This document shows, one piece after another, positions 16,651 to 41,406 of a stretch of DNA of 64,000 nucleotides. The DNA is from Kordiimonas sp. (lineage in GTDB: Bacteria > Pseudomonadota > Alphaproteobacteria > Sphingomonadales > Kordiimonadaceae): the NCBI RefSeq assembly GCF_048260245.1, contig NZ_JBLXGZ010000011.1, positions 960 through 64,959 on the forward strand, read 5' to 3'. The translations under genes were made by a program, and so were the position numbers. Positions within the stretch are counted from its first letter, which is position 1. Each line of letters opens with the position of its first letter. The notes beneath the pieces were generated by a model, which searched no databases, was not told where the DNA came from, and saw only the letters and a list, made by a program, of their open reading frames with translations.

Positions 16651-17646
16651 TTATTTGGTCCGGCTGAATACGGGGCGCTTGGCCGCGCGGGTGTACTCGT
16701 AAGCGAGGCGCTGAACAATGGCGGCGGCCGGTTCAATCTTGTGAACGTTGCCAACGCCGTGTCCGGCGGACCAAACGTCGCGCCATGCTTTGATCTTGCC
16801 CTGAGAGTCAGCAAAGTCTGGGCCATCCTTGTGGCCGGGATTATCCGGGTTTATACCCATGCGTTTAAGACTGGCCTTAAGATAATATGCTTCAGCGCCA
16901 GACAGCGCGCTTGTGAGGATGAGGTCTTCAAACTCTGCGGCGAGCAACATTGATTTATAGTCTTCTCCGGCCATGCTTTCTTCCGCCGCGATAAAGCCGG
17001 TGCCCACATAGGCGAGGTCGGCACCAAGTATTTCCGCGGCACGTACGGCCTCTCCGTTTGATATGCTGCCTCCAAGGATAAGGGGCCCGTCAAAAAAGGC
17101 GCGGACGGCCGTCACGAAAGCGAAGGCTGACATGGCTCCCGTGTGGCCTCCAGCGCCAGCTGAGACAAGCACAAGCCCGTCAGCGCCAGCCTGCAGTGCT
17201 TTCTTCGCATAAGGCACGTTATTAACGTCAGCAAACACAAGCCCGCCATAGGCGTGCACCACATCGGTTATAGCGCCAGGGCTGCCGAGCGCGGTAATGA
17301 CGACAGGCGGTTGGTATTTTTTCACAAGCTCTAGCTCAGCCTTCAGCCGGTCATAGGAGCGATGCGCAACCATATTAGCCGCGAAAGGCCCGATGGGAGC
17401 GTCTGGTTCGGATTCAAGCCAACGAGAGCGTGTCTGGGTGATCGTACTCAGCCATTCATCCAGGTCGTCGATTGTGCGGGCGTTCGGGAAAGGAAGGCTT
17501 GCCATAACCCCTGCGCGCATGGCCGCTAACACAAGGTCCGGGCCGGAGACCAGAAACATCGGCGCGGCGACGACGGGTAATAGCATATTTGTCGTCAAGT
17601 GATTAAAGCGATCACGTACTGGTTGGCTGGAAGCGTTCAGGCGCAT
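16651..17646 (-). CDS. nitronate monooxygenase (NMO/2-nitropropane dioxygenase) family FMN oxidoreductase
   Basis: 331 aa. LPVVAAPMFLVSGPDLV and GGSISNGEAVRAAEILGADLAYVGTGFIAAEES are typical of the family. Confidence 0.85.
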   Translation of the reverse strand: MRLNASSQPVRDRFNHLTTNMLLPVVAAPMFLVSGPDLVLAAMRAGVMASLPFPNARTIDDLDEWLSTITQTRSRWLESEPDAPIGPFAANMVAHRSYDRLKAELELVKKYQPPVVITALGSPGAITDVVHAYGGLVFADVNNVPYAKKALQAGADGLVLVSAGAGGHTGAMSAFAFVTAVRAFFDGPLILGGSISNGEAVRAAEILGADLAYVGTGFIAAEESMAGEDYKSMLLAAEFEDLILTSALSGAEAYYLKASLKRMGINPDNPGHKDGPDFADSQGKIKAWRDVWSAGHGVGNVHKIEPAAAIVQRLAYEYTRAAKRPVFSRTK

Positions 17647-17664
17647 TGTGTTCTCACGATTCTA

Positions 17665-17683
17665 TGACTTTCATAAAAATACC
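17665..17683 (+). promoter_or_regulatory. island motif copy a: TGACTTTCATAAAAATACC
   Basis: Matches the 19-bp consensus TTACTTKCATAAARATACC. It lies in the NMO/HCCA-isomerase divergent gap. Confidence 0.6.
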
Positions 17684-17733
17684 TATATTAGGCATAGCCG
17701 GAGCATCTCTGTTTGGCAATCGCTGTTCACATG

Positions 17734-17752
17734 TTACTTGCAAAATAATACC
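17734..17752 (+). promoter_or_regulatory. island motif copy b: TTACTTGCAAAATAATACC
   Basis: Second copy in the same gap, 45-63 nt upstream of ATG 17797. Confidence 0.6.
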
Positions 17753-17796
17753 AATACTCTATCTTACCAGGCAGGTTGCTGTTTTGGGAGGAAGGC

Positions 17797-18390
17797 ATGC
17801 GTTCGGAACTGATTTTTTATTTCGATTTTTCGTCGGCCTATTCATATATCGCCCAAGCTCGGATCGACGCGGTGTTTGCCGATGTTGATGCAGATATCCG
17901 CTGGCGGCCAATCTTGTTGGGAGCAATTTTCCGAGAAAACGGCTGGGTGCCGGTAAGCCCTGGCTCCCCCAAGGGTGACTATACTTTCCGTGATGTGGAA
18001 CGGACTGCACGGCTCGCGGGTCTTGAATTCGGTTGGCCGAAGATTTTTCCGTTTAACGGCATGCTGGCCGCTCGGCTGTTTTATGCTCTGGATAGCGTGG
18101 ATGCTGTGGCTTTTGCGCGGGCGGTGTTCCACGCGGCTTATGTATCTGGCCAGGATGTCACAAACCCGGCCGTGCTGGAGGGGCTGGTGGGCGATCTTGG
18201 TCTTGATTGTGCCGCGGTGACGGCACGTAGCGAGCTTGAGGAGGTGAAAGCCCGGCTCAGGGATGAAACGACGGCTGCGATGAAGGCAGGTGTTTTTGGT
18301 GCACCGAGTTTTGTTGTGAACGGGGAGGTCTTCTGGGGGGCCGACAGGATGACGGATGCCCGGGATTGGGCCGCAAGCGGCGGCTGGTAG
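17797..18390 (+). CDS. 2-hydroxychromene-2-carboxylate isomerase family protein (DsbA-like/GST-kappa fold)
   Basis: I moved the start to ATG 17797 after GGGAGGAAGG. LIFYFDFSSAYSY and VFGAPSFVVNGEVFWGADRM are hallmark blocks of the family. Confidence 0.85.
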   Translation: MRSELIFYFDFSSAYSYIAQARIDAVFADVDADIRWRPILLGAIFRENGWVPVSPGSPKGDYTFRDVERTARLAGLEFGWPKIFPFNGMLAARLFYALDSVDAVAFARAVFHAAYVSGQDVTNPAVLEGLVGDLGLDCAAVTARSELEEVKARLRDETTAAMKAGVFGAPSFVVNGEVFWGADRMTDARDWAASGGW

Positions 18391-18407
18391 CGAACGGAGA
18401 CATGTAA

Positions 18408-19646
18408 ATGGCGAATGATATATTTATCCTTGGTGGGCACCAGACTGATTTTGCGCGGAATTGGGCGCGCGAAGGCCTCGAGCTTATGGATATGTTTCGC
18501 GAAACGCTGGAACAGGGGCTGGCGGCAGCCGCTCTTGACGCGGCTGAAGTTGATGCGGCCCATGTGGGTAACTTTACCGCTGAGCTTTTCTGCAATCAGG
18601 GCCATTTGGGCGGTTTTCTTGCCGAAGCCGTGCCGGCAATGAGCGGTATCCCCGCTGGCCGGCATGAGGCCGCCTGTGCATCCAGCAGTATCGCTACCCT
18701 AGCGGCAACCGCTGAGATAGAGGCCGGGCGCTACGATATTGTTGCCGTGCTGGGTATTGAGATGATGCGCAACGTACCAGGTGATCAGGCGGCCCAATAT
18801 ATCGGCGGCCCTGCCATGTGGTCTGGCCATGAATGTCTGGACGTGAAATATCCATGGCCGCATATGTTTGCCCGTCTCGGGGACGAGTATGACCGGCGTT
18901 ACGGACTGAAGCATGAGCATCTGGCGGGCATCGCTGAAATTAACTATGCTAACGCGAAACGAAACCCCAATGCGCAAACCCGGGGCTGGGAGTTTAACGA
19001 TAAAAGTTTTACCGAGGACAGCGAGGCCAACCCGGTGATCGACGGTCGTATTCGCCGGCAGGACTGTGGTCAGGTCTCAGACGGCGCCGCTGTCGTGTTT
19101 CTTGCCAGTGAAAAGGGTGCGCGGGCCTACTGCCGTAAACGTGGTTTGGATATCGCTGCCCTGCCGCGTATCCGGGGCTGGGGCCATACCGTGGCCCCGA
19201 TCTCATTCGACGCGAAGCTTCGGGAAGGGCAGCAAGCCAACTCACCGTATATCTTTCCGCATGTTCGGGGGGCTATTGAGGCTGCGTTTGGACGTGCCGG
19301 GCTTTCTGGTGTGGCGGAATTGGACGCAATTGAGACCCACGACTGTTTCACGACCACGGAATATATGGCGATCGACCATTTTGGTATTACGGCGCCCGGC
19401 GAAAGCTGGAAGGCGGTGGAAGACGGTACCATTGCGTTTGATGGCCGCCTGCCGGTGAACCCCAGCGGCGGACTTATCGGGCTGGGCCACCCGGTTGGTG
19501 CCACCGGTGCGCGCATGCTTCTCGATGCATCCAGGCAGGTTGCGGGAAAAGCCGGTGATTATCAGGTAGATGGTGCGGGCACAGTTGCAACGCTCAATAT
19601 TGGCGGGAGTGCTACGACCACGGTGTCCTTCATCGTTGGTCGGTGA
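18408..19646 (+). CDS. SCP2/SCP-x-type thiolase-like protein
   Basis: 412 aa. Nucleophile context EAACASSSIA, HDCF motif (IETHDCFTTTE) and NPSGGLIGLGHPVGATG. Confidence 0.8.
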   Translation: MANDIFILGGHQTDFARNWAREGLELMDMFRETLEQGLAAAALDAAEVDAAHVGNFTAELFCNQGHLGGFLAEAVPAMSGIPAGRHEAACASSSIATLAATAEIEAGRYDIVAVLGIEMMRNVPGDQAAQYIGGPAMWSGHECLDVKYPWPHMFARLGDEYDRRYGLKHEHLAGIAEINYANAKRNPNAQTRGWEFNDKSFTEDSEANPVIDGRIRRQDCGQVSDGAAVVFLASEKGARAYCRKRGLDIAALPRIRGWGHTVAPISFDAKLREGQQANSPYIFPHVRGAIEAAFGRAGLSGVAELDAIETHDCFTTTEYMAIDHFGITAPGESWKAVEDGTIAFDGRLPVNPSGGLIGLGHPVGATGARMLLDASRQVAGKAGDYQVDGAGTVATLNIGGSATTTVSFIVGR

Positions 19647-19661
19647 CGCCTCTCAGGCATT

Positions 19662-19696
19662 GGTGGGAGGGCTGCGGTGGGTTGCAGCCCTCCACC
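19662..19696. terminator. GC-rich hairpin between convergent genes; no clear U-tract
   Basis: GGTGGGAGGGCTGC (19662-19675) pairs with GCAGCCCTCCACC (19684-19696) with one bulged G and an 8-nt loop. Confidence 0.5.
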
Positions 19697-19699
19697 ATA

Positions 19700-21385
19700 T
19701 TACAGCAAGCCCCGCAGTTCGCTCCGGATCACCTTGTTCATACTGTTACGCGGTAACGTGTCGCCAAGCACCAATTGCTCGGGCCATTTGAATTTGGCGA
19801 CACCGCATTCAGCGAGATACGAGGTAAGTTCCGCCAGTGTCAGGGTTTCACCTGCGTTGGTGACAACTACAGCGGCGACCTTTTCTCCCATCACCCGGTC
19901 ACTAAAGCCGACGACCGCAGCTTCCGAAACAAGGGGATGGTCGGTGATTACATGATCCAATTCCTCGGGTGAGATGTTCATGCCCCCGCGGATGATCAGT
20001 TCCTTGCGGCGGCCAACAAAACGGTAAAAACGATTATCTTCCCCTCCGATCTCAAACAGGTCGCCGGTGCGGAAATATCCCTCATTATCAAAGACACCTT
20101 CGGTTTTAGCGGCGTCGCCCAGATAACCGTCAAATACATTGGGCCCAGTGATTAAAAGCTCACCGGCGATACCCGGTTCGGTGATCTCGCGGTCATCCGC
20201 CTGCCAGTCTACCAGTTTGGTACGGCAGCGGTTGGCAAACCGGTTGCTCCAGTTGATCTCAGGGCGCCCAAAACGCGGGAACAGTGTGGCCCGGACCTCG
20301 GGGTCCGGTATGTCGCTCGGCCCGCCGACCAGCCCGGCACCTTCGTTGGAACCGTAGAAATTGACAATCTCCACATCAAATAAATCCTTGAAACCCTTTG
20401 TCATGGAGGGGCTGAGCGGGGCTGAGCCTGACGCAATATAATCGACATGGCTCAGATCCACGGTCTTGTGCAGTTCCGTGTGTTGCAAAAACATATTGAG
20501 GACCGCAGGCGGCGCAATGGTATAGGCCACCTTCTCCGCAACAATTTGGGAGAGGAAAACCTGCAGGTCAAAGGGGTGGTGCATGACAAGGCAGGCTTTT
20601 GCCATGGGCCAGTAATACAGGAACCCTGAGATTGCCCCCATGTTGGTCAGCGGGAAGGGATTGAGCATAACCGCCCCGTCCCTGACGGGCGCAGCGTCAG
20701 CCACGGCGCCGACCTGACTGGTCCAGTGGTTGTGATGGCGCGGCACACCCTTGGGCACGCCGGTTGTGCCTGATGTCCAGCATATGGTGAAGATCTCGTT
20801 GGGCGAAATATCGGGGCGTGTGACGGTGGGGACGTCTTCATCAGCGTCGATAGTGGGAAAAAAGAGCAGGGCAACGTGTGTCCCCTTGGTTTGGCTGTTG
20901 TCTTCAAACGCCAAAATGGTGGTATCTGCCCCGAACGCCGCCGTGCGGTCCGCCAGATGATCTACACCCCGGAAAGCGGTAACGGTCAGATAGGCCCTGG
21001 CCTTCGTTACCTCTGCAGCGCGGGCCAATTCAAATCGGCCGTATTGCATTGGCATGGGGCTGATGATGGCGCCAAGCCGGTCAGTCGCGATATAGGCGAT
21101 GACAAGTTCCGCAATGTTGGGCAATTGCACGATGATCACATCACCGGTGCCGACGCCGTTTTCTGATAAAGTGCTGGCAAGACGGTCCGCAAGGCGTGAA
21201 ACCTGAGCATATGTCAGCCGACACGGTGCGCCTGCGACAAGGTCCTTGCGGTTAGGCGGATCAATCAGGGCAAGGCGGTCCGGCGCATCGTTGACCGCAT
21301 CGGCGATCAGGCTAGCGAAGGTGGTGTCACCCCACCAGCCGCGGTCTGTATACTGTTTGACGGTTTCGCTGTCAGTTGATCGCAT
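19700..21385 (-). CDS. AMP-dependent acyl-CoA synthetase/ligase
   Basis: 561 aa. AMP-binding motif TSGTTGVPKGV, YRTGDL-like FRTGDLF, and C-terminal NSMNKVIRSEL. Confidence 0.85.
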   Translation of the reverse strand: MRSTDSETVKQYTDRGWWGDTTFASLIADAVNDAPDRLALIDPPNRKDLVAGAPCRLTYAQVSRLADRLASTLSENGVGTGDVIIVQLPNIAELVIAYIATDRLGAIISPMPMQYGRFELARAAEVTKARAYLTVTAFRGVDHLADRTAAFGADTTILAFEDNSQTKGTHVALLFFPTIDADEDVPTVTRPDISPNEIFTICWTSGTTGVPKGVPRHHNHWTSQVGAVADAAPVRDGAVMLNPFPLTNMGAISGFLYYWPMAKACLVMHHPFDLQVFLSQIVAEKVAYTIAPPAVLNMFLQHTELHKTVDLSHVDYIASGSAPLSPSMTKGFKDLFDVEIVNFYGSNEGAGLVGGPSDIPDPEVRATLFPRFGRPEINWSNRFANRCRTKLVDWQADDREITEPGIAGELLITGPNVFDGYLGDAAKTEGVFDNEGYFRTGDLFEIGGEDNRFYRFVGRRKELIIRGGMNISPEELDHVITDHPLVSEAAVVGFSDRVMGEKVAAVVVTNAGETLTLAELTSYLAECGVAKFKWPEQLVLGDTLPRNSMNKVIRSELRGLL

Positions 21386-21409
21386 GTGCTTCCCCTCCCG
21401 TGTGATTTA

Positions 21410-21428
21410 TTACTTGCATAAAGATACC
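21410..21428 (+). promoter_or_regulatory. island motif copy c: TTACTTGCATAAAGATACC
   Basis: Lies 25-43 nt upstream of the ligase start (opposite strand) and about 120-140 nt upstream of the tandem HxlR gene. Confidence 0.6.
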
Positions 21429-21550
21429 ATTAAGGAGCGCCGTTCAAATGTCAACAAGGCTCAGCGTATCTGCCGGCAAACTGCGGCCAATCCGCTGGTG
21501 GCCTAGACTAACAGGCGAATATAGGTATTATCGGCGAACGGACGCAGCTG

Positions 21551-22546
21551 ATGTTTTGCTGGTCTCCATCAATAACGGGGTGTTTTGTGGCGGAAACAAA
21601 ATTTATTCGCACATGTTCTATCTGGCGGGCTCTTGGAGTAGTGGGTGATTTCGCCACGCTGCTAATTCTCGAATCGATCTGGCAGGGCGCCCGGCGGTTC
21701 AGCGAAATTCAAAGCCGTACCGACATGTTGAAGGCGCTGCTGAGTGGCAGGCTAAAGCAATTAGTGGCAAATGGTCTTCTTGTGAAAGTGGCCTATACGG
21801 ATACGCCCAAGCGTTATGAATACCGCATGACGGAGAAATGCCGGGAGTTATACTGGACGGCACTTATGATGCTGCGGTGGGAAAAGCGCTGGAGTTCTGG
21901 ACACGCAAAAACCAGCGTGATTTTGACCCACAAGGGCTGCGGCCAGGAATTCGACCCCATACCAAGCTGCAGTGATTGTGAAAAAGAGATTTTTGCCCGT
22001 GATGTGACGTGGCAAGAGGGGCCGGGGGTCGGCTGGATGGCGCCAACCTATAGCCGGCGCCGCCAAGGTGAAGGGCGCCAGGCGGCGGGTGAGCGCACAA
22101 GCCTGTTTCATGAAATTGCCCTTGTGACTGGTGATCGCTGGGCTGGGCTTATTCTGCGCTCCGTCTTTACAAGGCTGCGCAAATTCGACGAGATCCGTAA
22201 GGATACGGGCATTGCGACCAATATTTTATCTGACAGGTTAAACCAGTTGGTGGAAAGCGGTTTTCTGTTCACGCATGCCTATCAGGACGCTCCCAAGCGC
22301 TATGAATACCGGCTGACCGATAAGGGCTGGGATTATTATCCTGTGTTGCTGATGCTGCTGCAGTGGGGTGACAAATGGTATGCGTCCCCGGAGGGTCCGC
22401 CCTTGTTGCTGAATCATAAACTATGCGGTCATGAGCTGACACCAACGGTTAATTGCTCAGCCTGTGGTGGCGTGATTTCGCCTGATGACGTCAGCTACAC
22501 GCTGGTGGAAGGTGCTAAAAAGGCGCCGTCCTTGGCTGAAGGATAG
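21551..22546 (+). CDS. fused tandem HxlR-type winged-helix transcriptional regulator (two HxlR modules in one chain)
   Basis: 331 aa. Module 1 is CSIWRALGVVGDFATLLILESIWQGARRFSEI...TPKRYEYRMTEKCRELY. Module 2 is IALVTGDRWAGLILRSVFTRLRKFDEI...APKRYEYRLTDKGWDYY. Each module is followed by H-x2-C-x9-C-x2-C. The start is uncertain: ATG 21551 or GTG 21587. Confidence 0.8.
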   Translation: MFCWSPSITGCFVAETKFIRTCSIWRALGVVGDFATLLILESIWQGARRFSEIQSRTDMLKALLSGRLKQLVANGLLVKVAYTDTPKRYEYRMTEKCRELYWTALMMLRWEKRWSSGHAKTSVILTHKGCGQEFDPIPSCSDCEKEIFARDVTWQEGPGVGWMAPTYSRRRQGEGRQAAGERTSLFHEIALVTGDRWAGLILRSVFTRLRKFDEIRKDTGIATNILSDRLNQLVESGFLFTHAYQDAPKRYEYRLTDKGWDYYPVLLMLLQWGDKWYASPEGPPLLLNHKLCGHELTPTVNCSACGGVISPDDVSYTLVEGAKKAPSLAEG

Positions 22547-22559
22547 GCGCGCTAAAAAG

Positions 22560-22578
22560 TAACTTTCAAAAACATACC
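22560..22578 (+). promoter_or_regulatory. island motif copy d: TAACTTTCAAAAACATACC
   Basis: Lies 40-58 nt upstream of ATG 22618, the first gene of the seven-gene operon. Confidence 0.6.
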
Positions 22579-22617
22579 ATTGGTGCTAGGGTCTTCTGAC
22601 TGACAGGGGAGCCTAGT

Positions 22618-23529
22618 ATGTCATCAAGCGCGTCGTTGCATCATCGTAGCGTCATTATTACCGGGGCTGGTAAAGGCCTTGGTCGGGCTTTTGCTCACGA
22701 TCTTGCGCAGCGCGGCTGCCGGGTTGTCGTGAATAATCGTGCTCATGAAGGCGTGCCCAGCGCTGCGGAATCCGTGGCTTCTGAAATTCATTCGGCAGGC
22801 GGCGACGCGGTAGCCGATCACAGTGACATGCAGGATGCAGGCGTTGGTGAGGCATTGGTCAACACTGCTTTGGCGCATTATGGCGCTATCGATGGCCTCA
22901 TACTGAATGCTGGTATCACGGGTCCTGCTGCAAAGGTGGCCGACAGCAGTTTTGTCGACCTAAGGTCTGTTTTTGAAACTAACTTCTTCTCTGCCGTTTC
23001 GATTGTGATGGCGGCGCTTCCCAGCTTGCGAAAATCGACAGATGCCAGAGTAGTGTTTGTCGCATCTACTGCAGGCCTGTATGGCGTGCGGGGGCGCGCG
23101 CCATATGCAGCGTCCAAGGCGGCGATGGTTGCTTATGCCCTGACCTTGGCGGCGGAGCTCAAGCGGGAGGGTGTGGGGGTAAACATCCTTGTGCCCTACG
23201 CGGAAACCCAAATGACCGCCGGGCTGGGTGATAGTGGGCTGGACCTGAGCCCCGCTCTGGTGGCGCCCGTTACAAGCTGGCTGATGTCGCCAGAGTGCCA
23301 TGCAAGTGGCGAGATATGGGTTTCGGGCGGCGGATACGTCAGGCGGGCGCGCATGGAGGAAGGCCTGGGGGCCGCATTGCCAACGGATGGCTGCGACCCT
23401 GTGGCGTGGCTTGCGGCAAACGCGCATCAAGCAGGCGACATGCAGGCAGGCAGGGGTTTCCCCGGTGCCGAGGCTGCGTTCACTGATCTGATGACGCGCC
23501 TGCAGGCTGCACGGGGAGGTGCAGCGTGA
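22618..23529 (+). CDS. SDR family oxidoreductase (3-hydroxyacyl-CoA-dehydrogenase-like)
   Basis: 303 aa. ITGAGKGLGRAFA cofactor motif and catalytic YAASKAA. Confidence 0.85.
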   Translation: MSSSASLHHRSVIITGAGKGLGRAFAHDLAQRGCRVVVNNRAHEGVPSAAESVASEIHSAGGDAVADHSDMQDAGVGEALVNTALAHYGAIDGLILNAGITGPAAKVADSSFVDLRSVFETNFFSAVSIVMAALPSLRKSTDARVVFVASTAGLYGVRGRAPYAASKAAMVAYALTLAAELKREGVGVNILVPYAETQMTAGLGDSGLDLSPALVAPVTSWLMSPECHASGEIWVSGGGYVRRARMEEGLGAALPTDGCDPVAWLAANAHQAGDMQAGRGFPGAEAAFTDLMTRLQAARGGAA

Positions 23530-24584
23530 GCTACCGCGTTATTCAATGGGCGACGGGGGCCATGGGCAAGACTTGCTTGCGCGCAGTGATTGATCATCCT
23601 GACCTCGAGCTTGTCGGGTTATATGTTTATAATGCCAAAAAGGCGGGTGTTGACGCGGGCGATATCGCTCACCGCGAGAAAACTGGTGTGCTGGCGACAC
23701 GGGATATAGATGACATTCTGGCACTTGAAGCCGATGTGGTGATTTTTGCGCCCATGCTGCAGCCGCCGTATATAAGCCATGATGCCACCATCATGCAGTT
23801 GTTGGCATCAGGCAAAAACGTTATCAGTATCAACGGCCAAAGCTATCCCGTGCATTGGGGGGGCGAGCACGCGGGCAAGTTTGATACAGCCTGCAAATCG
23901 GGCAGCAGCACGCTGCTTGGGGGTGGGCTGAACCCTGGATTTATTGTCGAGCGTATCGCCGCAGCCGCAACAGGCATATGCACCCGGCTTGACCGTGTCA
24001 AGGTTCAGGAAATTGTGCATTGTCAGGCGATGCGGAGCCCGGCGTATGTTTTTGATATGCTTGGTTTCGGCGCTGACGCGGGCAGCATTGATCCCAATAA
24101 TAGGGGGTGGGCACCGGCCGAGTTGCTGAACGGATTGTATAGCGAAGTTGTCGCGGGCTTCGTGGCCCGCCTGGGGCAGAAACTCGACCGGGTTGAGACC
24201 GCTCACCGTATGCTACCAGCCAGCAAGGATATTGAGATCGCGGCAGGGCAAATTCGCGCAGGCACAGTAAGCCACACACAGTGGTGTTGGCATGGCATTG
24301 TCGGTGGCCAGCGGCTTTTCACCTTACAAATCGACTGGATCATGGAAACCGCGCATCTGGAAAATCCGAACCAGCCTATTTGGCAGGTGTCGGTGTCAGG
24401 CGACCCCATGGTTGATATCCGCATAGACCTTGACCGCCGCGAGGGGGACAGCTTCAAGACGTCACCTGAACAATACGGCGTGGCGGGCTCTGTACTCAAT
24501 TCAATCCCGGCGCTTGTGAACGCGCCACCGGGGCTGATGCTGATGCCTTCAGCTCCATCATTCCAAAGCCACATGGCACCCTGA
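23526..24584 (+). CDS. NAD(P)-binding oxidoreductase of the dihydrodipicolinate-reductase-N-terminal-like (amine dehydrogenase) family
   Basis: 352 aa. N-terminus RVIQWATGAMGKTCLRAVIDHPDLELVGLYVY resembles DapB-like Rossmann proteins. GTG start overlaps the upstream stop (GTGA). Confidence 0.6.
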   Translation: MSYRVIQWATGAMGKTCLRAVIDHPDLELVGLYVYNAKKAGVDAGDIAHREKTGVLATRDIDDILALEADVVIFAPMLQPPYISHDATIMQLLASGKNVISINGQSYPVHWGGEHAGKFDTACKSGSSTLLGGGLNPGFIVERIAAAATGICTRLDRVKVQEIVHCQAMRSPAYVFDMLGFGADAGSIDPNNRGWAPAELLNGLYSEVVAGFVARLGQKLDRVETAHRMLPASKDIEIAAGQIRAGTVSHTQWCWHGIVGGQRLFTLQIDWIMETAHLENPNQPIWQVSVSGDPMVDIRIDLDRREGDSFKTSPEQYGVAGSVLNSIPALVNAPPGLMLMPSAPSFQSHMAP

Positions 24585-24605
24585 ATACACGTGAGGGAGA
24601 AACAG

Positions 24606-26081
24606 ATGACTGCCACACTGGTCAACACGGTCGAGACCACCATCAAGCCCAACGAACACCCCTATATGAACGGTGCCTGGACACCGGTGCATGCAGAATA
24701 TGATGCTACGGATATGCAGGTGATTGGTGATATTCCAACAGACATTGCCGGGGTATATGTGCGCAATAGTGAAAACCCGGTGCATGACCCTATCGGAAAG
24801 TACCACCCTTTCGACGGTGACGCTATGCTACACATGATGCGTTTCCGAGACGGTAAGGCCGAATATCGCAACCGTTTTGTGCGTACCGATGGTTTTATCG
24901 CAGAAGCTGACGCTGGCCATGCGCTTTGGGCAGGCATTGCGGAAAACCCGAAAAAATCCCTGCGGCCGGGATGGGGCGCGCAGGGTGCACTGAAGGATTC
25001 CTCGTCAACTGATGTGGTAATCCATGCGGGCAAGGTGTTGTCTACCTTCTATCAATGCGGTGAGGGATACAGGCTCGACCCCTACACACTGGAGGGTTTA
25101 GGCAAGGAAGGCTGGGTGCCGGCAGATGGTATTTCCGCTCACCCCAAGGTAGACGAAGCGACCGGCGAGATGCTGTTTTTCAATTATTCAAAGAATGCCC
25201 CGTTCATGCATTATGGTGTGGTGGGTGCAGATAATGAGCTCAAGCATTATATCCCGGTGGAATTGCCCGGCCCGCGTCTGCCGCACGACATGGGGTTTAC
25301 CGAAAATTATTCGATCCTCGGCGACTTTCCCCTGTTCTGGGACCCTGAAGGGCTAAAACATGGTTTTCACACCAGCCGCTTTTTCCCTGATATGCCGTCG
25401 CGATTTGCCATAATCCCGCGGTTTGGCGACGTATCAGATATCAAATGGTTTGAGGCTGCGCCCACCTATATGCTGCACTGGATGAACGCCTACGAAGAAG
25501 GTGACGAGGTCGTGCTGGACGGTTATTTCCAGGAAGAGCCTTATCCAAAACCACTGGAAGGATTACCGCCAGGGGCCGGGTTGATGATGGCCTTTCTGGA
25601 TGAACATTCCTTCAAGCCAAAACTGCACCGCTGGCGCTTCAATCTGAAAACCGGTGAGACAAAGGAAGAACGTCTGGATGACCGCATTCTTGAGTTCGGT
25701 TCCTTCAACCAGAAGATTGCGGGCAGGCGTGGTCGCTACCTCTATAGCACGACAACAAGGCCGGGTTGGTTCCTGTTTACGGGGGTGGTCAAACATGACC
25801 TCGACACCGGTAAAAGCTGGTCATGCGATTTTGGCAAGGGCCGCTTTGGCAGCGAGGCGCCGTTTGTGCCGCGACTGAACGCCAAAACCGAAGATGATGG
25901 CTATCTGATCAGCTTTATCACAGACATGGTTGAAGACCGGTCCGAGTGTGTGTTGCTGGATGCTCAGCACGTTGAGGCTGGCCCTGTGTGCCGCATTATC
26001 CTGCCGCACCGTATTTCAAGCGGTACCCACGCCTGTTGGGCCAATGACAGTGACATAGAAAACCCGGGCGGCCATGCCTGA
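24606..26081 (+). CDS. carotenoid oxygenase family protein (carotenoid/apocarotenoid/stilbene-cleaving dioxygenase type)
   Basis: I moved the start to ATG 24606 after GAGGGAGAAA. NGAWTPV...HPFDGDAMLH, and four His contexts (SAHPKVD, LPHDMGFTENY, YMLHWMNAYE, SSGTHACW) match the four-His iron site of the family. Confidence 0.9.
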   Translation: MTATLVNTVETTIKPNEHPYMNGAWTPVHAEYDATDMQVIGDIPTDIAGVYVRNSENPVHDPIGKYHPFDGDAMLHMMRFRDGKAEYRNRFVRTDGFIAEADAGHALWAGIAENPKKSLRPGWGAQGALKDSSSTDVVIHAGKVLSTFYQCGEGYRLDPYTLEGLGKEGWVPADGISAHPKVDEATGEMLFFNYSKNAPFMHYGVVGADNELKHYIPVELPGPRLPHDMGFTENYSILGDFPLFWDPEGLKHGFHTSRFFPDMPSRFAIIPRFGDVSDIKWFEAAPTYMLHWMNAYEEGDEVVLDGYFQEEPYPKPLEGLPPGAGLMMAFLDEHSFKPKLHRWRFNLKTGETKEERLDDRILEFGSFNQKIAGRRGRYLYSTTTRPGWFLFTGVVKHDLDTGKSWSCDFGKGRFGSEAPFVPRLNAKTEDDGYLISFITDMVEDRSECVLLDAQHVEAGPVCRIILPHRISSGTHACWANDSDIENPGGHA

Positions 26082-26119
26082 AGGACAATGAGCCTGCAGT
26101 ATAATGGGGGAGAGTATCA

Positions 26120-26917
26120 ATGGGTTCTGTAAGTTTGCCTGAGTTACTGGCATATGACTTTCTTGTGCTGATCGGCTGTATGCTGCTGCTGTGGCTTATT
26201 TCGATACGGCTAGGCGATGTATCGTTTGTGGACAGCTTTTGGGCCGCCGGGTTTGTGGTGGTCGCCGCGTTTGCCTATTGCTTCGCAGGGGGAGACGGCG
26301 CGCAGAGGCAGCTCGTGTTGATCGTCACGGCGGTATGGGGGTCAAGGCTGGCGCTTTACCTGTTCTGGCGGTGGCGGCATGACGGGCCGGACGCACGTTA
26401 TGTCGCGATGGTTGCCAGAGTGAAGGGCAGCGTTCCCTTGTTCACCCTGAAGAACGTTTTCCTGCTGCAGGGCGTGATGCTTTGGATTGTCTCCCTGCCG
26501 ATCCAGTTTGTGATGGCGGCCCCGGCGGGGGCAATGCTGGGAAGCCTCGCACTTGCCGGTGGCATCCTTGCGGCTATCGGCATTTTCTTCGAGACAGTGG
26601 GTGATTGGCAGATGGCACGGTTTCGGGCCGACCCTGCCAACAAAGGGCAGGTGATGGACCGGGGCCTGTGGCGCTACACCCGGCATCCCAACTATTTTGG
26701 CGACGCCTGTGTTTTCTGGGGGCTGTATTTGGTCGCACTTGAGGTTGAACACGGCATGTGGTCGGTGTTTGGCCCGCTTCTGTTGACCTGGACGCTGGTA
26801 AAATGGTCGGGCGCCGCCCTGCTGGAGCGGCGGCTTTCGCGCTCAAAGCCTGGCTATGAGGCTTATCTTGCGCGCACCAGCAGCTTTATTCCCTGGTTTC
26901 CAAAGAAGGGTAAGTAG
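26120..26917 (+). CDS. DUF1295 family membrane protein (steroid-5-alpha-reductase/ICMT-like fold)
   Basis: 265 aa and multi-pass hydrophobic. RYTRHPNYFGDACVFWGL block. Confidence 0.8.
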   Translation: MGSVSLPELLAYDFLVLIGCMLLLWLISIRLGDVSFVDSFWAAGFVVVAAFAYCFAGGDGAQRQLVLIVTAVWGSRLALYLFWRWRHDGPDARYVAMVARVKGSVPLFTLKNVFLLQGVMLWIVSLPIQFVMAAPAGAMLGSLALAGGILAAIGIFFETVGDWQMARFRADPANKGQVMDRGLWRYTRHPNYFGDACVFWGLYLVALEVEHGMWSVFGPLLLTWTLVKWSGAALLERRLSRSKPGYEAYLARTSSFIPWFPKKGK

Positions 26918-26918
26918 A

Positions 26919-27461
26919 ATGCAGTATGACGATAAAGCCATCCGTGCGTTGCTTGACAAAAAGGCGATCGAAGAGGTGCTTGTACGCTATTGCCGTGGTG
27001 CTGACCGGGGTGATGCCGACCTGATTGCAAGCGCCTACCACGACGACGCAGTGGAAGATCACGGCGGCACCTTTCTGGGGTCTGCCCGTGACTATCTTGA
27101 CCTCTTGCGCAAAGTACTGCCTGCGGCCGGCCGCATGAGCCATGCCATTACCAACATGCTGGTGGAGCTTGAGGATGACACCCAAGCTACAAGCGAGTGT
27201 TACATCCTGACTTTCTCCCGGCGTGGTGAGGGAGAGGACGGTTACGACAGCCTCACAATGGCGCGCCTCATTGACAAGTTTGAAAAGCGTGACGGGGAAT
27301 GGCGCATTGCCCATCGTCGGTTGGCGTGGGAATGGAACCATGAAATGCCCATCCGCGAAACCTGGGGCCGGGGTATGATTGCCCCTGACCCGGATAGCCT
27401 GATACGCGGCGGCAAGGTGCCGGATGATATTCTCTATAATTTCAGTTTCGGGAGGGATTAA
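26919..27461 (+). CDS. NTF2-fold protein, SnoaL_4-like
   Basis: I moved the start to ATG 26919, 1 nt after the upstream stop. KKAIEEVLVRYCRGADRGDADLIASAYHDDA...RDGEWRIAHRRLAWEWN. Paralogue of 28213-28740. Confidence 0.75.
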   Translation: MQYDDKAIRALLDKKAIEEVLVRYCRGADRGDADLIASAYHDDAVEDHGGTFLGSARDYLDLLRKVLPAAGRMSHAITNMLVELEDDTQATSECYILTFSRRGEGEDGYDSLTMARLIDKFEKRDGEWRIAHRRLAWEWNHEMPIRETWGRGMIAPDPDSLIRGGKVPDDILYNFSFGRD

Positions 27462-28195
27462 TGGACATTGAAGGCTGTGTTGCCCTGGTGACGGGAGGTA
27501 ACCGGGGGATCGGTTTGGGCTTTGTGTCCGAGTTGGTCAGGGCAGGAGCCAAAAAGGTGTATGTCGGCTGCCGATCACTGGCTGACGGTGAGGCCATTGC
27601 AGCTACTGACCCCGAGTATCTTGTTGCCCTTGAGCTTGATGTGACAAATGCGGATCAGGTTGCTGCCGCCGCTGCCAAATGCACGGACGTGTCGCTGTTG
27701 GTTAATAATGCTGGGGCTTTCCTCAATCAGCGGCTGATTAGAGCGGACACCATGGATGCGATGCGTACCGAGATGGAGGTCAATTATTTCGGTGTCGTGG
27801 CGATGTGCCGTGCGTTTGCGCCCGTGCTCAAGTCGAACGGCGGGGGTGCCATTGTGAATGTGCTGTCGGCGGGCGGTATTGTCGCTGTGCCGGGCATGGG
27901 CGGCTACAGCCCGTCAAAATTCGCGTCGCGGGCAGCAAGTACCTGTATGCGTGCGGAACTGGCGGGGCAGGGTACCACCATATCGGCGTTGATTGTCGGC
28001 TCGGTTGATACCCGCATGGCGGCACATATCAAGCGGGATAAATCCTCACCGGAGGCCATTGGTCGTGCGGGTATCGCGGCCGCAAAATCCGGCGTTGAAG
28101 AAATGGACACTGACGCGCACGCCATGGAAGTGCGCGCTGCGCTGCACCGTGACCCGAAGGGGTTGGCGGACGCAATGGCGGCGGCGGTTCGCTAG
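27461..28195 (+). CDS. SDR family oxidoreductase
   Basis: 244 aa. ALVTGGNRGIGLGF and catalytic YSPSKFA. The start overlaps the upstream stop (TAATG). Confidence 0.85.
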   Translation: MDIEGCVALVTGGNRGIGLGFVSELVRAGAKKVYVGCRSLADGEAIAATDPEYLVALELDVTNADQVAAAAAKCTDVSLLVNNAGAFLNQRLIRADTMDAMRTEMEVNYFGVVAMCRAFAPVLKSNGGGAIVNVLSAGGIVAVPGMGGYSPSKFASRAASTCMRAELAGQGTTISALIVGSVDTRMAAHIKRDKSSPEAIGRAGIAAAKSGVEEMDTDAHAMEVRAALHRDPKGLADAMAAAVR

Positions 28196-28212
28196 AGAAG
28201 GAATTATTATTT

Positions 28213-28740
28213 ATGGCTAATACAGTTGAGACCATGCTTGCCAAGCAGGATATCCGTGATGTGCTGACCAATTATGCCCGTGCGGTCGACCGGGCTGACG
28301 CACCACTGTTGAAATCTTGCTATCACGCGGATGCGATTGAAGAACACGGCAATACTTACACAGGTCCTGCACATGCTTATGCGGACGGTGCGGCGGAGCG
28401 GTTGATGAAGCTCAAGCACCCGATGGCGCACTATGTTTGCAATATCCATGTCGACCTTGATCTTGAGGCGGGTGTGGCATTTGTGGAAAGTTACCTGCTG
28501 ACTTTCGCCCGGTTCGACAAGGGGCAAGAGCCATGGGACACGCTCACCGGCGGGCGTATTGTTGACCGGTTTGAATGTCGGGATGGTGAGTGGAAAATTG
28601 CCCACCGTAAAATGGCGTTTGACTGGAACCGCGATATGCCTGTAGCCGAGGGTTGGTGCCTTGGCCTCTTCAAGCCGGAAGACCCGCGGGTGATCATGGG
28701 GACACGGGGAAGCGCCGATCTTTCATATCAGCGTTTTTAA
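28213..28740 (+). CDS. NTF2-fold protein, SnoaL_4-like
   Basis: 175 aa. KQDIRDVLTNYARAVDRADAPLLKSCYHADA...RDGEWKIAHRKMAFDWN. Confidence 0.75.
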   Translation: MANTVETMLAKQDIRDVLTNYARAVDRADAPLLKSCYHADAIEEHGNTYTGPAHAYADGAAERLMKLKHPMAHYVCNIHVDLDLEAGVAFVESYLLTFARFDKGQEPWDTLTGGRIVDRFECRDGEWKIAHRKMAFDWNRDMPVAEGWCLGLFKPEDPRVIMGTRGSADLSYQRF

Positions 28741-28770
28741 CCCGCCCTGGTCCGCAGCGAGTATGCTGGC

Positions 28771-29193
28771 TCAGCGTTCAAGGTCGGCAACAAGGTTGTC
28801 CCAGACTGCGCTGGACCTGGCGGCCTTCGCCGCTTTGAGCACATCATAATCAAAATAGTCGCGCCAGCGCCGCACCTTGCCGTCCTCGAATTCCATGACA
28901 CCCATGTAAGGCATACGGACAGTAATGCCTTCCGGGTCGGTATATTCGTCAATACCCTCAATCATCAGGGTATCGCCGACTTCAAACGCGCGGATGATAC
29001 GCCAGCGAATATCTGACTGGCCTTTGCCGAATTTAAGCAGGAAACGCTCGACATTGTTGCGCCCCTCAAGGGGCGGTGTCCCAACATGGTAGTGATAAAC
29101 GACATCCGGGTGCAGGTGGTCTAGCACAGCTTCGACATCATCGACCTTCCAGGCGTTGATAACGGCGTCAAGCGTTGCACGATGGTTGCTCAT
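28771..29193 (-). CDS. NTF2-fold protein, limonene-1,2-epoxide-hydrolase-like
   Basis: 140 aa with no signal peptide. C-terminal block FEDGKVRRWRDYFDY resembles the LEH family. Paralogue of 31326-31808. Confidence 0.6.
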   Translation of the reverse strand: MSNHRATLDAVINAWKVDDVEAVLDHLHPDVVYHYHVGTPPLEGRNNVERFLLKFGKGQSDIRWRIIRAFEVGDTLMIEGIDEYTDPEGITVRMPYMGVMEFEDGKVRRWRDYFDYDVLKAAKAARSSAVWDNLVADLER

Positions 29194-29258
29194 ATCTTTC
29201 CTTCCTTAGCGAGGTTGTGAGGTGTGCCGTTTTCCGTTGGCATAGCTTCTGTCTTTTG

Positions 29259-29277
29259 TTACTTTCATAACAAAACC
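29259..29277 (+). promoter_or_regulatory. island motif copy e: TTACTTTCATAACAAAACC
   Basis: Lies in the divergent gap between 28771-29193 (-) and the ligase gene (+), 106-124 nt upstream of ATG 29383. Confidence 0.6.
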
Positions 29278-29382
29278 TTATAGGGCGTGGGGCACTGCGT
29301 CAATTGAGAAGATGTGCGGCATAAGCCTATATATTTTCGGTATAAGCCTCGAATGGACAATGACGTTGGGGAGGATAAAAGT

Positions 29383-31233
29383 ATGATAAAGCAACTTGAT
29401 TTAGGGTCTATTCCTTACCGCTCAATCGACCTGCCGGCGGTCGATATCAGCCGTGTGGAACGCCCGGACGGGACCTTGATCCTTGAAAACAATATCGCCC
29501 TGCCGCCTTTCGATCCCCTGTTATATGGTCACCTGAAAAGACAGGCATCTGCGCAGCCAACAAAAACTGCACTGGCAGAGCGAAACCGGGAGACAGGTGA
29601 GTGGCGCTGCCTCAGCTTTGCGGAGATGTTTGCTTATGTATGTTCGGCCGCGCAGGGGCTGCTCAATCTGGGTGGCGGCCCTGACCGGCCATTGATGATC
29701 CTGTCCGGTAACAGTATAGCCCATGCGCTGATGCGGTTTGGCGCCATTGTCGCTGGTGTGCCGGTATGCCCGGTGAGCGAAAACTATGCGCTGATGCCCG
29801 GAAGCCATGACCGGTTGAAACATGTGTATCAACTGGTGAAGCCTGGTATTTTGTTTGCGGAAGGCGGCGCGCCCTTTAATGCGGCTCTTTTATCGCTGGG
29901 GCTTGATGGTCAAACGGTGATCAGCGCCGATCCAGACGGTCTACCCGTGCCGGGACTTAAACTTGAAACCCTGTTAAACACGGTGCCAGCGCCGGACCTT
30001 GAGACACACATCCTCAGCCGTGACCCGGACCAGCACGCAGCCTATATGCTGACCTCGGGCTCCACTGGCCGGCCAAAGGCGGTGGTCCACAGCCAGCGTA
30101 TGGTATTGACAAGCCTGTTTCAGGCGTATGCCGTATTGGGCGAGGCCATGGGCTGGCAGGATCGTTTGCTGGACTGGCTGCCCTGGAGTCATGTCTCAGG
30201 CGCGACCAACTTGACGGGCGCTACAGTTTTTGGCGGTAGCTTTTATGTCGATGACGGTAAACCCGCGCCGGGCCTTTTTGAGAAAACCCTTCGTAATCTT
30301 AAAGATCTCTCCGTGCCGTACTTCGCCAATGTGCCCTTTGGCTATGCGATGCTGGTGGATGCACTGGAGGCAGATGCCGACCTGAGGCGTGCTTTTTTCA
30401 AGAATCTGCATCTTATGCTTTATGGTGGGGCTGGCTTGCCGCAAGCGACGTATGAGCGCCTTCAGTCGATGGCTGTCGAAGAAGTAGGGGCCAGAATATT
30501 CATTACCACTGGTTACGGCGCTACTGAAACGACATCGGGATGCATGGCAATTTTCTTTGATAGCCATATGGTTGGCGTTGGCCTGCCGTTGCCGGGTCTT
30601 ACTGTCAAGTTGGTGCCGGCGGGAGATGCGTTTGAGGTGCGAATGAAGGGCGACAATGTGATGTCGGGCTATCTCGATGACCCGGCTCAAACGTCTAAAA
30701 GTTTTGACGAGGAGGGCTTCTACCAACTTGGTGACAAGTTAAATTTTCATGAACCAGACAATATCGCGGCAGGCTTATATTTTGCTGGGCGACTGGCGGA
30801 GGAGTTCAAGTTAGGGACAGGGTCCTGGGTATCGGGCGGCAGGGTGCGCGGTGGGCTGATTGCGGCGCTGTCGCCACTGGTTAGTGATCTTATTCTTTGC
30901 GGCGAAGGGCGTGATGAACTGGCAGTTTTGGCGGTGCCGAACGCCTTGGGGCTCGCGGGCCTCGCTGGAGGTGAGGTGGCTGGGAACCCGCTGGAAAATA
31001 TTGCCATCAGGCGGGCGATGTCCGGGAAGCTGCAAAGCTGGAACGCTGCCAACCCCGGGAAATCAACGCGTATCGGGCGCTTTGCCTTTCTTGAAAAACC
31101 GCTCAGTGCTGACTGTCACGAGGTTTCGGATAAAGGCACGATCAACCAAGCGGCTGCTATCCGCAACCGAGCGGAGGAAGTGGAGCAGCTATACGCAGAT
31201 AGTCCGGGCGAATTTGTTTTGGCTTGTGACTGA
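29383..31233 (+). CDS. AMP-binding acyl-CoA synthetase, feruloyl-CoA-synthase-like
   Basis: I moved the start to ATG 29383 after GGGGAGGATAAAAGT. LTSGSTGRPKAV motif, GYGATETT, and a long N-terminal region like Fcs-type ligases. Confidence 0.8.
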   Translation: MIKQLDLGSIPYRSIDLPAVDISRVERPDGTLILENNIALPPFDPLLYGHLKRQASAQPTKTALAERNRETGEWRCLSFAEMFAYVCSAAQGLLNLGGGPDRPLMILSGNSIAHALMRFGAIVAGVPVCPVSENYALMPGSHDRLKHVYQLVKPGILFAEGGAPFNAALLSLGLDGQTVISADPDGLPVPGLKLETLLNTVPAPDLETHILSRDPDQHAAYMLTSGSTGRPKAVVHSQRMVLTSLFQAYAVLGEAMGWQDRLLDWLPWSHVSGATNLTGATVFGGSFYVDDGKPAPGLFEKTLRNLKDLSVPYFANVPFGYAMLVDALEADADLRRAFFKNLHLMLYGGAGLPQATYERLQSMAVEEVGARIFITTGYGATETTSGCMAIFFDSHMVGVGLPLPGLTVKLVPAGDAFEVRMKGDNVMSGYLDDPAQTSKSFDEEGFYQLGDKLNFHEPDNIAAGLYFAGRLAEEFKLGTGSWVSGGRVRGGLIAALSPLVSDLILCGEGRDELAVLAVPNALGLAGLAGGEVAGNPLENIAIRRAMSGKLQSWNAANPGKSTRIGRFAFLEKPLSADCHEVSDKGTINQAAAIRNRAEEVEQLYADSPGEFVLACD

Positions 31234-31250
31234 CAAAGCAGTGTTCAGGC

Positions 31251-31280
31251 ATAAAAAAGCCCCGCACAGAGATGCGGGGC
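31251..31280 (-). terminator. Rho-independent terminator for the minus-strand NTF2 gene
   Basis: GCCCCGCA (31259-31266) pairs with TGCGGGGC (31273-31280). On the minus strand it is followed by TTTTTTAT. Confidence 0.7.
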
Positions 31281-31296
31281 GTAAGGCGAAAAACCC

Positions 31297-31321
31297 GGGG
31301 GCCAGACCCCCCTGAATTTTT
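31297..31321 (+). terminator. Rho-independent terminator for the plus-strand ligase gene
   Basis: GGGGG (31297-31301) pairs with CCCCC (31307-31311), followed by CTGAATTTTT. The stem is short. Confidence 0.5.
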
Positions 31322-31325
31322 ACGC

Positions 31326-31808: not shown

Positions 31809-31836
31809 GATTATACTCCGGGGTTTGGAAGGAGAG

Positions 31837-31871
31837 GGCGGGCCTGTGGACACTACCGTGCCAGGCCCGCC
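31837..31871 (-). promoter_or_regulatory. intercistronic 10-bp perfect hairpin between the receptor and secreted NTF2 genes
   Basis: GGCGGGCCTG (31837-31846) pairs with CAGGCCCGCC (31862-31871) around a 15-nt loop. There is no U-tract. Confidence 0.6.
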
Positions 31872-31878
31872 GACATAT

Positions 31879-34203: not shown

Positions 34204-34319
34204 GTCTGTTTCCTTCCCCATGGTGTCCCGGCGCCGCCTTCCCTGCCGCGCCCCCTTGCTGGTCGTTTGATCCGAAAGGGGTGGGAGCCTCCGGTTATCA
34301 CGTTAAGCGCGATATAGTA

Positions 34320-34338
34320 GGTATGTCAATGCAAGTTT
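34320..34338 (-). promoter_or_regulatory. island motif copy f: AAACTTGCATTGACATACC (minus-strand reading)
   Basis: Lies 117-135 nt upstream of the receptor start at 34203 and is oriented with that gene. Confidence 0.6.
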
Positions 34339-41403: not shown

Positions 41404-41406
41404 CCC

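Follow-up and report, generated by a model that had tools for sequence, protein, structure and literature searches.

A tandem HxlR-type gene of Kordiimonas, a candidate single-chain pseudo-dimeric repressor, and its associated non-palindromic motif

Ordinary regulators of the MarR and HxlR types are symmetric dimers that bind palindromes. Two winged helices can also reside in one polypeptide, as in SarS, SarU, and SarY of Staphylococcus aureus, single chains whose two winged-helix domains mimic a dimer. Within the HxlR/DUF24 family, YodB, QsrR, HypR, and CatR are repressors. YodB binds the palindrome TACT-N7-AGTA by placing one helix-turn-helix in each of two consecutive major grooves (PMC8063818), and the N-terminal Cys position of the family is used for thiol-based sensing of electrophiles or oxidants (PMC8063818). 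The gene described here lies at 21551–22546 on the forward strand of a 64,000-nucleotide stretch of Kordiimonas sp. DNA (contig NZ_JBLXGZ010000011.1, positions 960 to 64,959; hereafter the window); it encodes a 331-amino-acid tandem HxlR protein and is surrounded by copies of a non-palindromic motif.

We interpret this protein, with a probability of about 0.7, as a single-chain pseudo-dimeric HxlR/DUF24 (MarR-type winged-helix) repressor that acts on a 21-bp non-palindromic operator and controls a catabolic regulon. What was computed in silico is the domain architecture, how well the ligands are conserved, the statistics of the motif, its co-occurrence with the regulator, and its position relative to genes; from these we infer the packing of the modules, the identity of the metal, DNA binding by the regulator, repression rather than activation, and the inducer.

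Architecture and spread of the tandem regulator

The 331-residue open reading frame (ORF) was confirmed in the ORF list of the window. The original prediction had seen two HxlR-type winged helix-turn-helix (wHTH) modules in it, and both are borne out: the Pfam profile PF01638 (HxlR) hits two stretches of the protein with 118.1 bits (cut-off 20.8), the best stretch covering residues 193–278 in module 2, and an AlphaFold2 model built from 50 homologues folds the second half, like the first, as a wHTH. NCBIfam returned no specific model for the ORF, only weak matches to the HxlR-like RrpA and RrpB. Self-alignment pairs residues 29–154 with 191–316, about 125 residues at an offset of 162, and reproduces with exact coordinates two features first noticed in the sequence, the block PKRYEYR(M/L)T(E/D)K common to both halves and the 162-residue spacing of their His/Cys sets. 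In the model, module 1 (residues 22–116, nt 21614–21898) consists of helices 22–31, 34–44, 50–57, and 61–73, a wing at 77–93, and a helix at 101–114, and module 2 (residues 186–278, nt 22106–22384) of helices 187–194, 196–206, 212–219, and 223–235, a wing at 239–255, and a helix at 263–277. Each module is followed by a three-stranded beta unit, tail 1 at residues 117–158 (nt 21899–22024) and tail 2 at residues 279–320 (nt 22385–22510), such that each half forms a complete wHTH-plus-beta unit.

The full-length model has a mean predicted local distance difference test score (pLDDT) of 81.4 and a predicted template modelling score (pTM) of 0.75, with pLDDT below 50 only at residues 1–20 and 161–183 (13% of the chain disordered). 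Since this pTM, at 13% disorder, exceeds the expectation for two independently floating halves, the two halves would appear to be packed intramolecularly like an HxlR dimer, and, as read from the pTM, confidently so. The best Foldseek matches are PA1374 (4gcv) and PA1607 (2f2e) of Pseudomonas aeruginosa, followed by YodB, HypR, HxlR, and QsrR, whose structures match with target-normalised template modelling (TM) scores of 0.7–0.84. The whole PA1607 chain, of which the PDB entry contains two, lies on one module plus its tail (141 aligned columns for a target length of 142, TM 0.74), and phmmer also gave PA1607 and PA1374 as the best sequence matches (E = 1e-17 and 3e-17) in an alignment that spans the tail to residue 295.

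The two halves are joined by the element W-x-EGPGVGWM-x3-YSRRRQ (residues 154–171, nt 22010–22063, forward strand), which is the most conserved segment of the subfamily although it is predicted to be disordered. W154, G157, P158, G159, G161, M163, Y167, and R169–R171 are invariant in 50 homologues, and GPG(V/A)G together with the basic R-x-x-R-R patch persists in relatives of 31–38% identity. The linker may contact DNA or act as a lid.

The annotated ATG is probably not the true start, since the 120 closest homologues all open at residue 13; translation probably begins at GTG 21587, giving a protein of 319 residues; the first 12 codons, including C3 and C11, are without counterpart in these homologues. 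In the same region, a 66-codon ORF (21448–21648, forward strand) begins 17 nt past the motif copy at 21410, has a strong AAGGAG Shine–Dalgarno sequence 8 nt 5' of its ATG, and overlaps the regulator start in another frame; it could be a chance ORF or a leader peptide.

Of the two modules only the first has a Cys where the family senses thiol-reactive compounds near the N-terminus, C22 within IRTCSIWRAL; module 2 has S184 there. In PA1607 and PA1374 it is the N-terminal Cys that falls on C22, and with HypR the aligned segment opens at HypR residue 14, which we take to be its thiol-sensing Cys14. Among the 120 close homologues C22 is invariant, in the block IRTCSIWRALE, and among 119 diverse family members the position is Cys in 19. 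The earlier observation that only module 1 keeps this Cys therefore holds, S184 included, with the correction that its invariance is limited to the close subfamily.

Each module is followed by a ligand motif H-x2-C-x9-C-x2-C, and the two motifs lie 162 residues apart. H127, C130, C140, and C143 (nt 21929–21979) are invariant in the 120 close homologues, as are H289, C302, and C305 of the second set (nt 22415–22465). The residues and their positions are those originally given, but C292 proved variable in close relatives (D in 62, C in 39, G in 9, and H in 9), while it is C in 109 of the 119 diverse homologues. In that diverse set the ligands of both tails are 92–97% conserved (tail 1 in 114–116 of 119, tail 2 in 109–116). 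Two motifs of the form H-x2-C-x7-12-C-x2-C occur in 111 of 150 family representatives, the short proteins among which look like fragments, and in a profile of 40 tails the only invariant residues are H, C, C, and C. Since both ligand sets are present in 109–116 of 119 diverse members and C22 in 19, the paired His-Cys3 sites are, judged by conservation, the mark of the whole family and C22 that of a subfamily. In the model the four ligands sit at strand ends and turns as two knuckles, H-x2-C-G and C-x2-C, the first two strands of each tail ending at ligands 1 and 3 (H127 and C140; H289 and C302), on a three-stranded sheet modelled confidently (pLDDT 90–96 for tail 1 and 94–96 for residues 291–310 of tail 2). 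The sites are most likely structural mononuclear Zn sites of the zinc-knuckle type. The zinc-ribbon likeness first suggested for the tails is thus kept as far as four near-invariant ligands on two beta-turn knuckles go, but no zinc-ribbon family reaches its threshold. The tail profile found nothing over threshold in the PDB and Pfam, and the attempt to name the fold in this way was dropped, the matches to zinc ribbons, LIM, and CTCF fingers being sub-threshold and at the level of a CxxC knuckle.

A homologue search of 5.8 billion proteins returned 869 clusters (90% identity, E ≤ 1e-5). The best 120, the window's own protein aside, are 53–65% identical and 310–395 residues long, and such names as they carry go no further than 'HxlR family' or 'winged helix-turn-helix' regulator. 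Among 1.84 billion 50%-identity representatives, searched exhaustively with HMMER, 259 proteins reached E ≤ 1e-30, nearly all of 300–340 residues, with full-length matches down to 31% identity; one family cluster is from Aeromicrobium (Actinomycetota). Relatives are encoded in 162 species genomes, the best 80 of which supplied the related loci used below (1.42 Mb in total); these belong to Caulobacterales (Maricaulis, Oceanicaulis, Hyphomonas, Hyphococcus, Phenylobacterium, Caulobacter, and others) and Sphingomonadales. The closest among the species genomes is an alphaproteobacterial metagenome-assembled genome (isolate M2405, SBGU01000013.1; locus L001), whose regulator is 93% identical and whose gene order matches the window from the NMO-like gene to the LEH-like gene. 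When the halves of 119 diverse members were compared, 231 of 238 found their best match in the same-type half of another protein, while the two halves of one protein are about 32% identical, a pattern expected of a single ancient duplication after which each half has been under its own constraint. No literature was found on tandem HxlR proteins, on HxlR in Caulobacter, or on the motif sequence, and as far as found this large family has no characterised member.

The associated motif and the predicted regulon

The motif is 21 bp long and non-palindromic, with the consensus T-n-ACTT(G/T)CATAA-nn-ATAC-Y-n-A. A position weight matrix scan, with 18 bits as the lower limit for a strong copy, found nine copies, among them the two originally named on either side of the gene (at 21410 and 22560); all nine are intergenic and located from 17.6 to 34.7 kb, and the remaining 47 kb of the window has no such copy; the consensus pattern itself has 3 matches in the window against 0 expected. 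Two copies on the forward strand, at 17665–17686 (TGACTTTCATAAAAATACCTAT, 27.2 bits) and 17734–17755 (TTACTTGCAAAATAATACCAAT, 26.5 bits), lie between the NMO-like gene (reverse strand) and the DsbA-like and thiolase-like genes (forward strand), the latter copy 42 nt 5' of the probable ATG 17797 of the DsbA-like gene. The regulator gene is flanked by two more on the same strand. One, at 21410–21431 (TTACTTGCATAAAGATACCATT, 27.3 bits), is 25 nt from the ATG (21385) of a divergent acyl-CoA synthetase gene and 120–156 nt 5' of the regulator start, a placement that recurs in L001; the other, at 22560–22581 (TAACTTTCAAAAACATACCATT, 24.8 bits), is 14 nt past the regulator stop and 37 nt 5' of a short-chain dehydrogenase/reductase (SDR) gene. 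A further forward copy, at 29259–29280 (TTACTTTCATAACAAAACCTTA, 25.7 bits), precedes the ORF of a second acyl-CoA synthetase by 34 nt. The remaining four occupy the intergenic region between a TonB-dependent receptor gene and a thiolase gene: 34317–34338 on the reverse strand (AAACTTGCATTGACATACCTAC, 25.9 bits), which faces the receptor gene (31879–34221, reverse strand), 34411–34432 (TTAGTTTTATAAAAATACCAAA, 18.4 bits) and 34544–34565 (TAAATTGCATACCGATACCATA, 20.2 bits) on the forward strand, and 34679–34700 (TAACTTGCTTAACAATACTATT, 24.6 bits) on the reverse strand. Weaker sites occur in coding sequence, at 21770–21791 (reverse strand, 14.9 bits) in the regulator gene and at 22961–22982 (reverse strand, 16.7 bits) in the SDR gene; the latter site is also present in L001, at 11386.

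A matrix made from the window copies only found 178 sites in the 80 related loci, and the refined matrix 353, against 0 in shuffled sequence. T5, T6, and A17 are essentially invariant and C18 is 92–93% conserved; the motif has no dyad symmetry. TTGC and ATAC, the blocks that stand out most, are separated by about 10 bp, one helical turn, and conservation extends to the A/T-rich centre. None of the 80 loci lacks the motif, and 75 carry two or more copies. A copy no more than 200 nt past the regulator stop, like that at 22560, is present in 66 of the 80; in 33 one is upstream of a co-directional acyl-CoA synthetase–regulator pair, and in 11 one is within 300 nt upstream of the regulator itself. 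A conserved cluster gene is co-oriented with 293 of the 353 copies (83%); for the nine gene families that hold 279 of these 293, the median distance is 35–86 nt upstream of the gene. Only 5 of the 353 copies are inside genes. Synteny of the cluster genes is strong across genera. All-against-all ORF clustering of the 80 loci revealed no second conserved regulator family, and no regulator was found among the small ORFs in the gaps of the window, and the proposal of another conserved regulator in the neighbourhood was rejected on these grounds. The idea that the long leader, or some other part of the window, holds a known RNA element was likewise rejected, Rfam giving no match in the whole 64 kb.

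The motif also accompanies more distant members of the family. Three relatives of 35–38% identity, drawn blindly from the representative list (L081, L082, and L087) and encoded in unrelated genomes of 44–61% GC, adjoin genes of CoA-dependent catabolism and are flanked by the motif: L087 (44% GC) has six intergenic copies with the consensus ACTTGCATAAnAAGACT, L082 has one copy, and L081 has a divergent pair. Across the distant relatives the left half-site is constant and the right half varies among ATAC, AGAC, and GTAC. A second tandem-HxlR paralogue, about 39% identical and with no Cys at position 22, is found in loci of Caulobacter and Phenylobacterium (its operon in 16 loci and a second copy in 18, including L010, L013, L019, L023, L031, and L043; for example L010 16290–19157), where it ends a DUF1295–NMO operon that is preceded by the variant motif TAACTTGCATAGAAAGACTGTCAAA. 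Between the regulator and this paralogue, whose operon has the AGAC variant of the right half, both modules differ; the module 2 recognition helix IA(T/S)NILS(D/N)RL is constant wherever the left half-site is constant, which is a weak hint only. A GC-rich metagenomic contig (L085, 5736–8975) carries two tandem-HxlR paralogues with one SDR gene between them, next to acyl-CoA synthetase, ADH, TauD, and thiolase genes. With the motif in all 80 loci and also around relatives of only 35–38% identity, and with no other conserved regulator beside it, the tandem HxlR protein very likely reads the 21-bp motif; the candidacy originally proposed for it is in this way strengthened as a prediction.

The motif overlaps features of a promoter. 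A TAnnnT pattern is enriched at motif positions 27–29, where 24% of sites have it against mostly <1.5% per position in the flanks, and GCTA is present at position 26 in 8% of sites. TTGCAT at positions 5–10 then stands at a 17-bp spacer from the −10-like hexamer, and at the copy at 22560 the −35 and −10 would be TTTCAA and TAGGGT, 17 nt apart, followed by GGGGAG and the SDR ATG. The operator would accordingly cover the −35 hexamer with its left half and the promoter spacer with its right half, an arrangement that favours repression; a left half that is −35-like would also explain the fixed orientation of the motif.

The predicted regulon spans 16651–35979, as judged from Pfam and NCBIfam assignments and from the recurrence of the same families around the regulator in related loci, with the motif upstream. 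In order, it holds an NMO-like gene (NMO/FabK-like reductase, 16651–17646, reverse strand), DsbA-like and thiolase-like genes (17776–19646, forward), an acyl-CoA synthetase gene (19700–21385, reverse), past the regulator gene a run of forward genes for an SDR, a DapB_N-like oxidoreductase, an RPE65-type oxygenase, DUF1295, SnoaL, and a further SDR (22618–28195), the second acyl-CoA synthetase gene (29314–31233, forward), LEH-like and TonB-dependent receptor genes (31326–34221, reverse), and a thiolase gene (34726–35979, forward). The RPE65-type oxygenase is of the carotenoid or lignostilbene cleavage type. Genes preceded by the motif include those for acyl-CoA synthetases, thiolases, SDRs, the carotenoid-cleavage-type oxygenase, DUF1295, NMO, and the TonB receptor. 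The start of the DsbA-like gene is probably ATG 17797, preceded by GGGAGGAAGG and 7 codons past the TTG of the ORF list. Beyond the span, 36085–43512 (forward strand) encodes a 1772-residue bacterial alpha-2-macroglobulin and then a PBP1C-type transglycosylase/transpeptidase, the classic A2M–PbpC pair, which is unrelated to the regulator.

Proposed mechanism and alternative explanations

In the mechanism we propose, a duplication would have fused two PA1607-like units, each made of a wHTH and a small C-terminal beta domain with a His-Cys3 set. The monomer would pack its modules as the subunits of an HxlR dimer pack and insert two different recognition helices into adjacent major grooves, each module reading one half-site (the TTGC and ATAC peaks), and the Arg-rich linker would possibly contact the A/T-rich centre of the operator. 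Bound there, the protein would block RNA polymerase and repress genes for the uptake and catabolism of a substrate resembling a lipid or isoprenoid; the regulator's own operon would be part of the controlled set in most relatives. Release would come from a pathway intermediate, which might be an acyl-CoA, a free acid, or an electrophilic aldehyde acting on C22. A bolder version holds that an overlooked, widespread family of single-chain winged-helix repressors reads, with two modules and an Arg-rich linker, a 21-bp directional operator that embeds the −35, that module 2 reads the ACTTGCATAA half and module 1 the variable nAC half, and that in the subfamily of Caulobacterales and Sphingomonadales the invariant C22 is alkylated by an electrophilic aldehyde from the regulon's own carotenoid-cleavage-type oxygenase, switching one half of the protein only; taken as a whole we regard this version as improbable.

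Several observations weigh against the proposal. The −10-like hexamer is at the right distance in only about a quarter of sites. No −10 follows the copy at 21410, and the sole sigma-70-like match that a simple consensus scan gave between this copy and the regulator start is at 21504–21531, 75 nt further downstream, so that auto-repression in the window is uncertain. An activator, too, would be compatible with motif and gene so strictly sharing one orientation. The loci that served to refine the matrix were also those in which sites were then counted, and near the paralogues of L085 there is no copy of the ACTTGCATAA motif, from which it follows that some branches of the family, that of L085 among them, probably read other sites. 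As to structure, the one indicator of module–module packing is the pTM, and no zinc-ribbon family of Pfam matches the protein over threshold (Zn_ribbon_3 comes closest, with E = 0.19 and 11.7 bits where 27 are required).

Among the alternatives, the joining of two ordinary HxlR genes through an assembly error or a frameshift, a possibility raised along with the original prediction, has a negligible likelihood. The internal repeat itself, and nothing more, speaks for it; hundreds of independent isolate and metagenome assemblies carry the same single ORF of 310–330 residues, the most conserved segment of the subfamily lies in the linker between the halves, and conservation of the tandem architecture over the 869 and 259 clusters refutes it. 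It is very unlikely that some other factor, such as an unlinked regulator or a specialised sigma factor, recognises the motif while the tandem HxlR protein controls other targets. With a −35-like left half, conservation of the motif could partly reflect promoter function, and the copies within 300 nt upstream of the regulator are confined to 11 of 80 loci, both of which would suit such a reader. Yet the 80 loci share no further regulator family, the motif is still found beside family members of 35–38% identity in unrelated genomes of 44–61% GC, and in the 33 loci noted above the regulator comes after an acyl-CoA synthetase gene of the same direction that the motif precedes. A17, which is invariant, and C18, conserved at 92–93%, fall in the spacer, where no sigma-70 element is known. 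A sigma-54 reading of the reverse strand (TGGTAT-N-TGCAA) was rejected, as the spacing is GG-N9-GC and not GG-N10-GC, the G of GC is replaced by T in many copies, and such a promoter would face away from the downstream genes.

That the regulator binds the motif but activates, its asymmetry setting the orientation relative to RNA polymerase over the −35 in the manner of a class II activator, is a minority possibility that has to be taken into account. A purely steric repressor needs no co-orientation with the downstream gene, which 83% of copies show; TTGCAT and TTTCAA match TTGACA poorly and many sites are without a clear −10, as is typical of activator-dependent promoters; and Bacillus subtilis HxlR is called an activator in its PDB entry. 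With TAnnnT at position 28, however, the operator centre would be at about −29, inside the core promoter and at the usual position of a repressor. The orientation is already accounted for if the left half-site is the −35 hexamer, and copies occur as pairs or triplets in both orientations within single intergenic regions (34317–34700; L087). The relatives named at the outset, YodB, QsrR, HypR, and CatR, are all repressors, and YodB has been described on the azoR1 promoter at a palindrome (PMC8063818). A sensory role of the His-Cys3 sites, as a redox-labile Zn-thiolate, a rubredoxin-like Fe, or an Fe-S site responding to oxidants, iron, or oxygen, is unlikely. It would be in keeping with the Asp found at position 292, the second ligand of tail 2, in 62 of 120 close relatives, and with the winged-helix regulators IscR and NsrR, in which Fe-S clusters are held by Cys3-His and Cys3-Asp ligand sets; the regulon, moreover, includes an RPE65/carotenoid-cleavage oxygenase, an oxygen-dependent and iron-dependent type. 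Beta-turn knuckles of the forms H-x2-C-G and C-x2-C are instead the geometry of mononuclear zinc ribbons and rubredoxins, the weak sequence matches are all to Zn-binding domains, and the regulon is catabolic, with no redox or iron stress set. A repressor with structural metal sites is the interpretation we retain.

Comparison with known systems

If the interpretation is right, a covalent pseudo-dimer shows a route from the palindromes of ordinary MarR/HxlR dimers to directional, longer, and more specific recognition, and tandem HxlR proteins would be a scaffold for engineering asymmetric operators. The family amounts to hundreds of 50%-identity clusters in two or more phyla, with a predicted operator and regulon of unusual clarity. 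The regulon would represent an uncharacterised uptake and catabolic pathway of marine and soil Alphaproteobacteria, with a TonB receptor, a carotenoid/stilbene-cleavage-type oxygenase, and beta-oxidation-like enzymes, and both regulator and pathway could be annotated in many genomes.

With HxlR/DUF24 proteins of Firmicutes such as YodB, HypR/YybR, QsrR, and HxlR, the regulator shares PF01638 in both modules, the wHTH fold (TM 0.7–0.84), and the N-terminal Cys position, the last in module 1 only. It differs from these single modules of about 100–130 residues in fusing two diverged ones, about 32% identical, and in the extra His-Cys3 beta domain that follows each. A homodimer on a palindrome is the rule in that family, and here there is one chain and a non-palindromic associated motif. 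The YodB box has a free N7 spacer, whereas the motif associated with the tandem regulator has a conserved A/T-rich centre. The operator of QsrR is GTATA-N5-TATAC, the half-site of which resembles the ATAC half of the motif.

PA1607 and PA1374, the best matches in both sequence and fold, also have the N-terminal Cys and a C-terminal extension of about 40 residues; unlike the tandem protein they are single modules, with E and S in place of H and C at the tail ligand positions, and as far as found their functions and operators are uncharacterised. The tail unit is best described as a predicted metal-bearing version of the PA1607-type C-terminal domain, without the status of an independent ribbon domain. 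Like zinc ribbons and knuckles, it has two ligand pairs of x2 spacing, four ligands in all, placed on beta turns, with a Gly after the second ligand of pair one; it departs from them in that its first ligand is His and that no curated zinc-ribbon model reaches threshold.

SarS-type proteins share the principle of two wHTH domains in one chain. SarS (1p4x) is among the Foldseek matches, poorly (TM 0.22–0.28, root mean square deviation 15.7 Å), and the regulator, which is unrelated to these proteins in sequence, has no Pfam match to the SarA family. SarS-type proteins are not known to carry metal-binding tails or to act on an asymmetric operator defined to a similar degree. Two winged helices per chain were thus already known from these proteins; what is new is a tandem HxlR protein with a defined, predicted operator and regulon.

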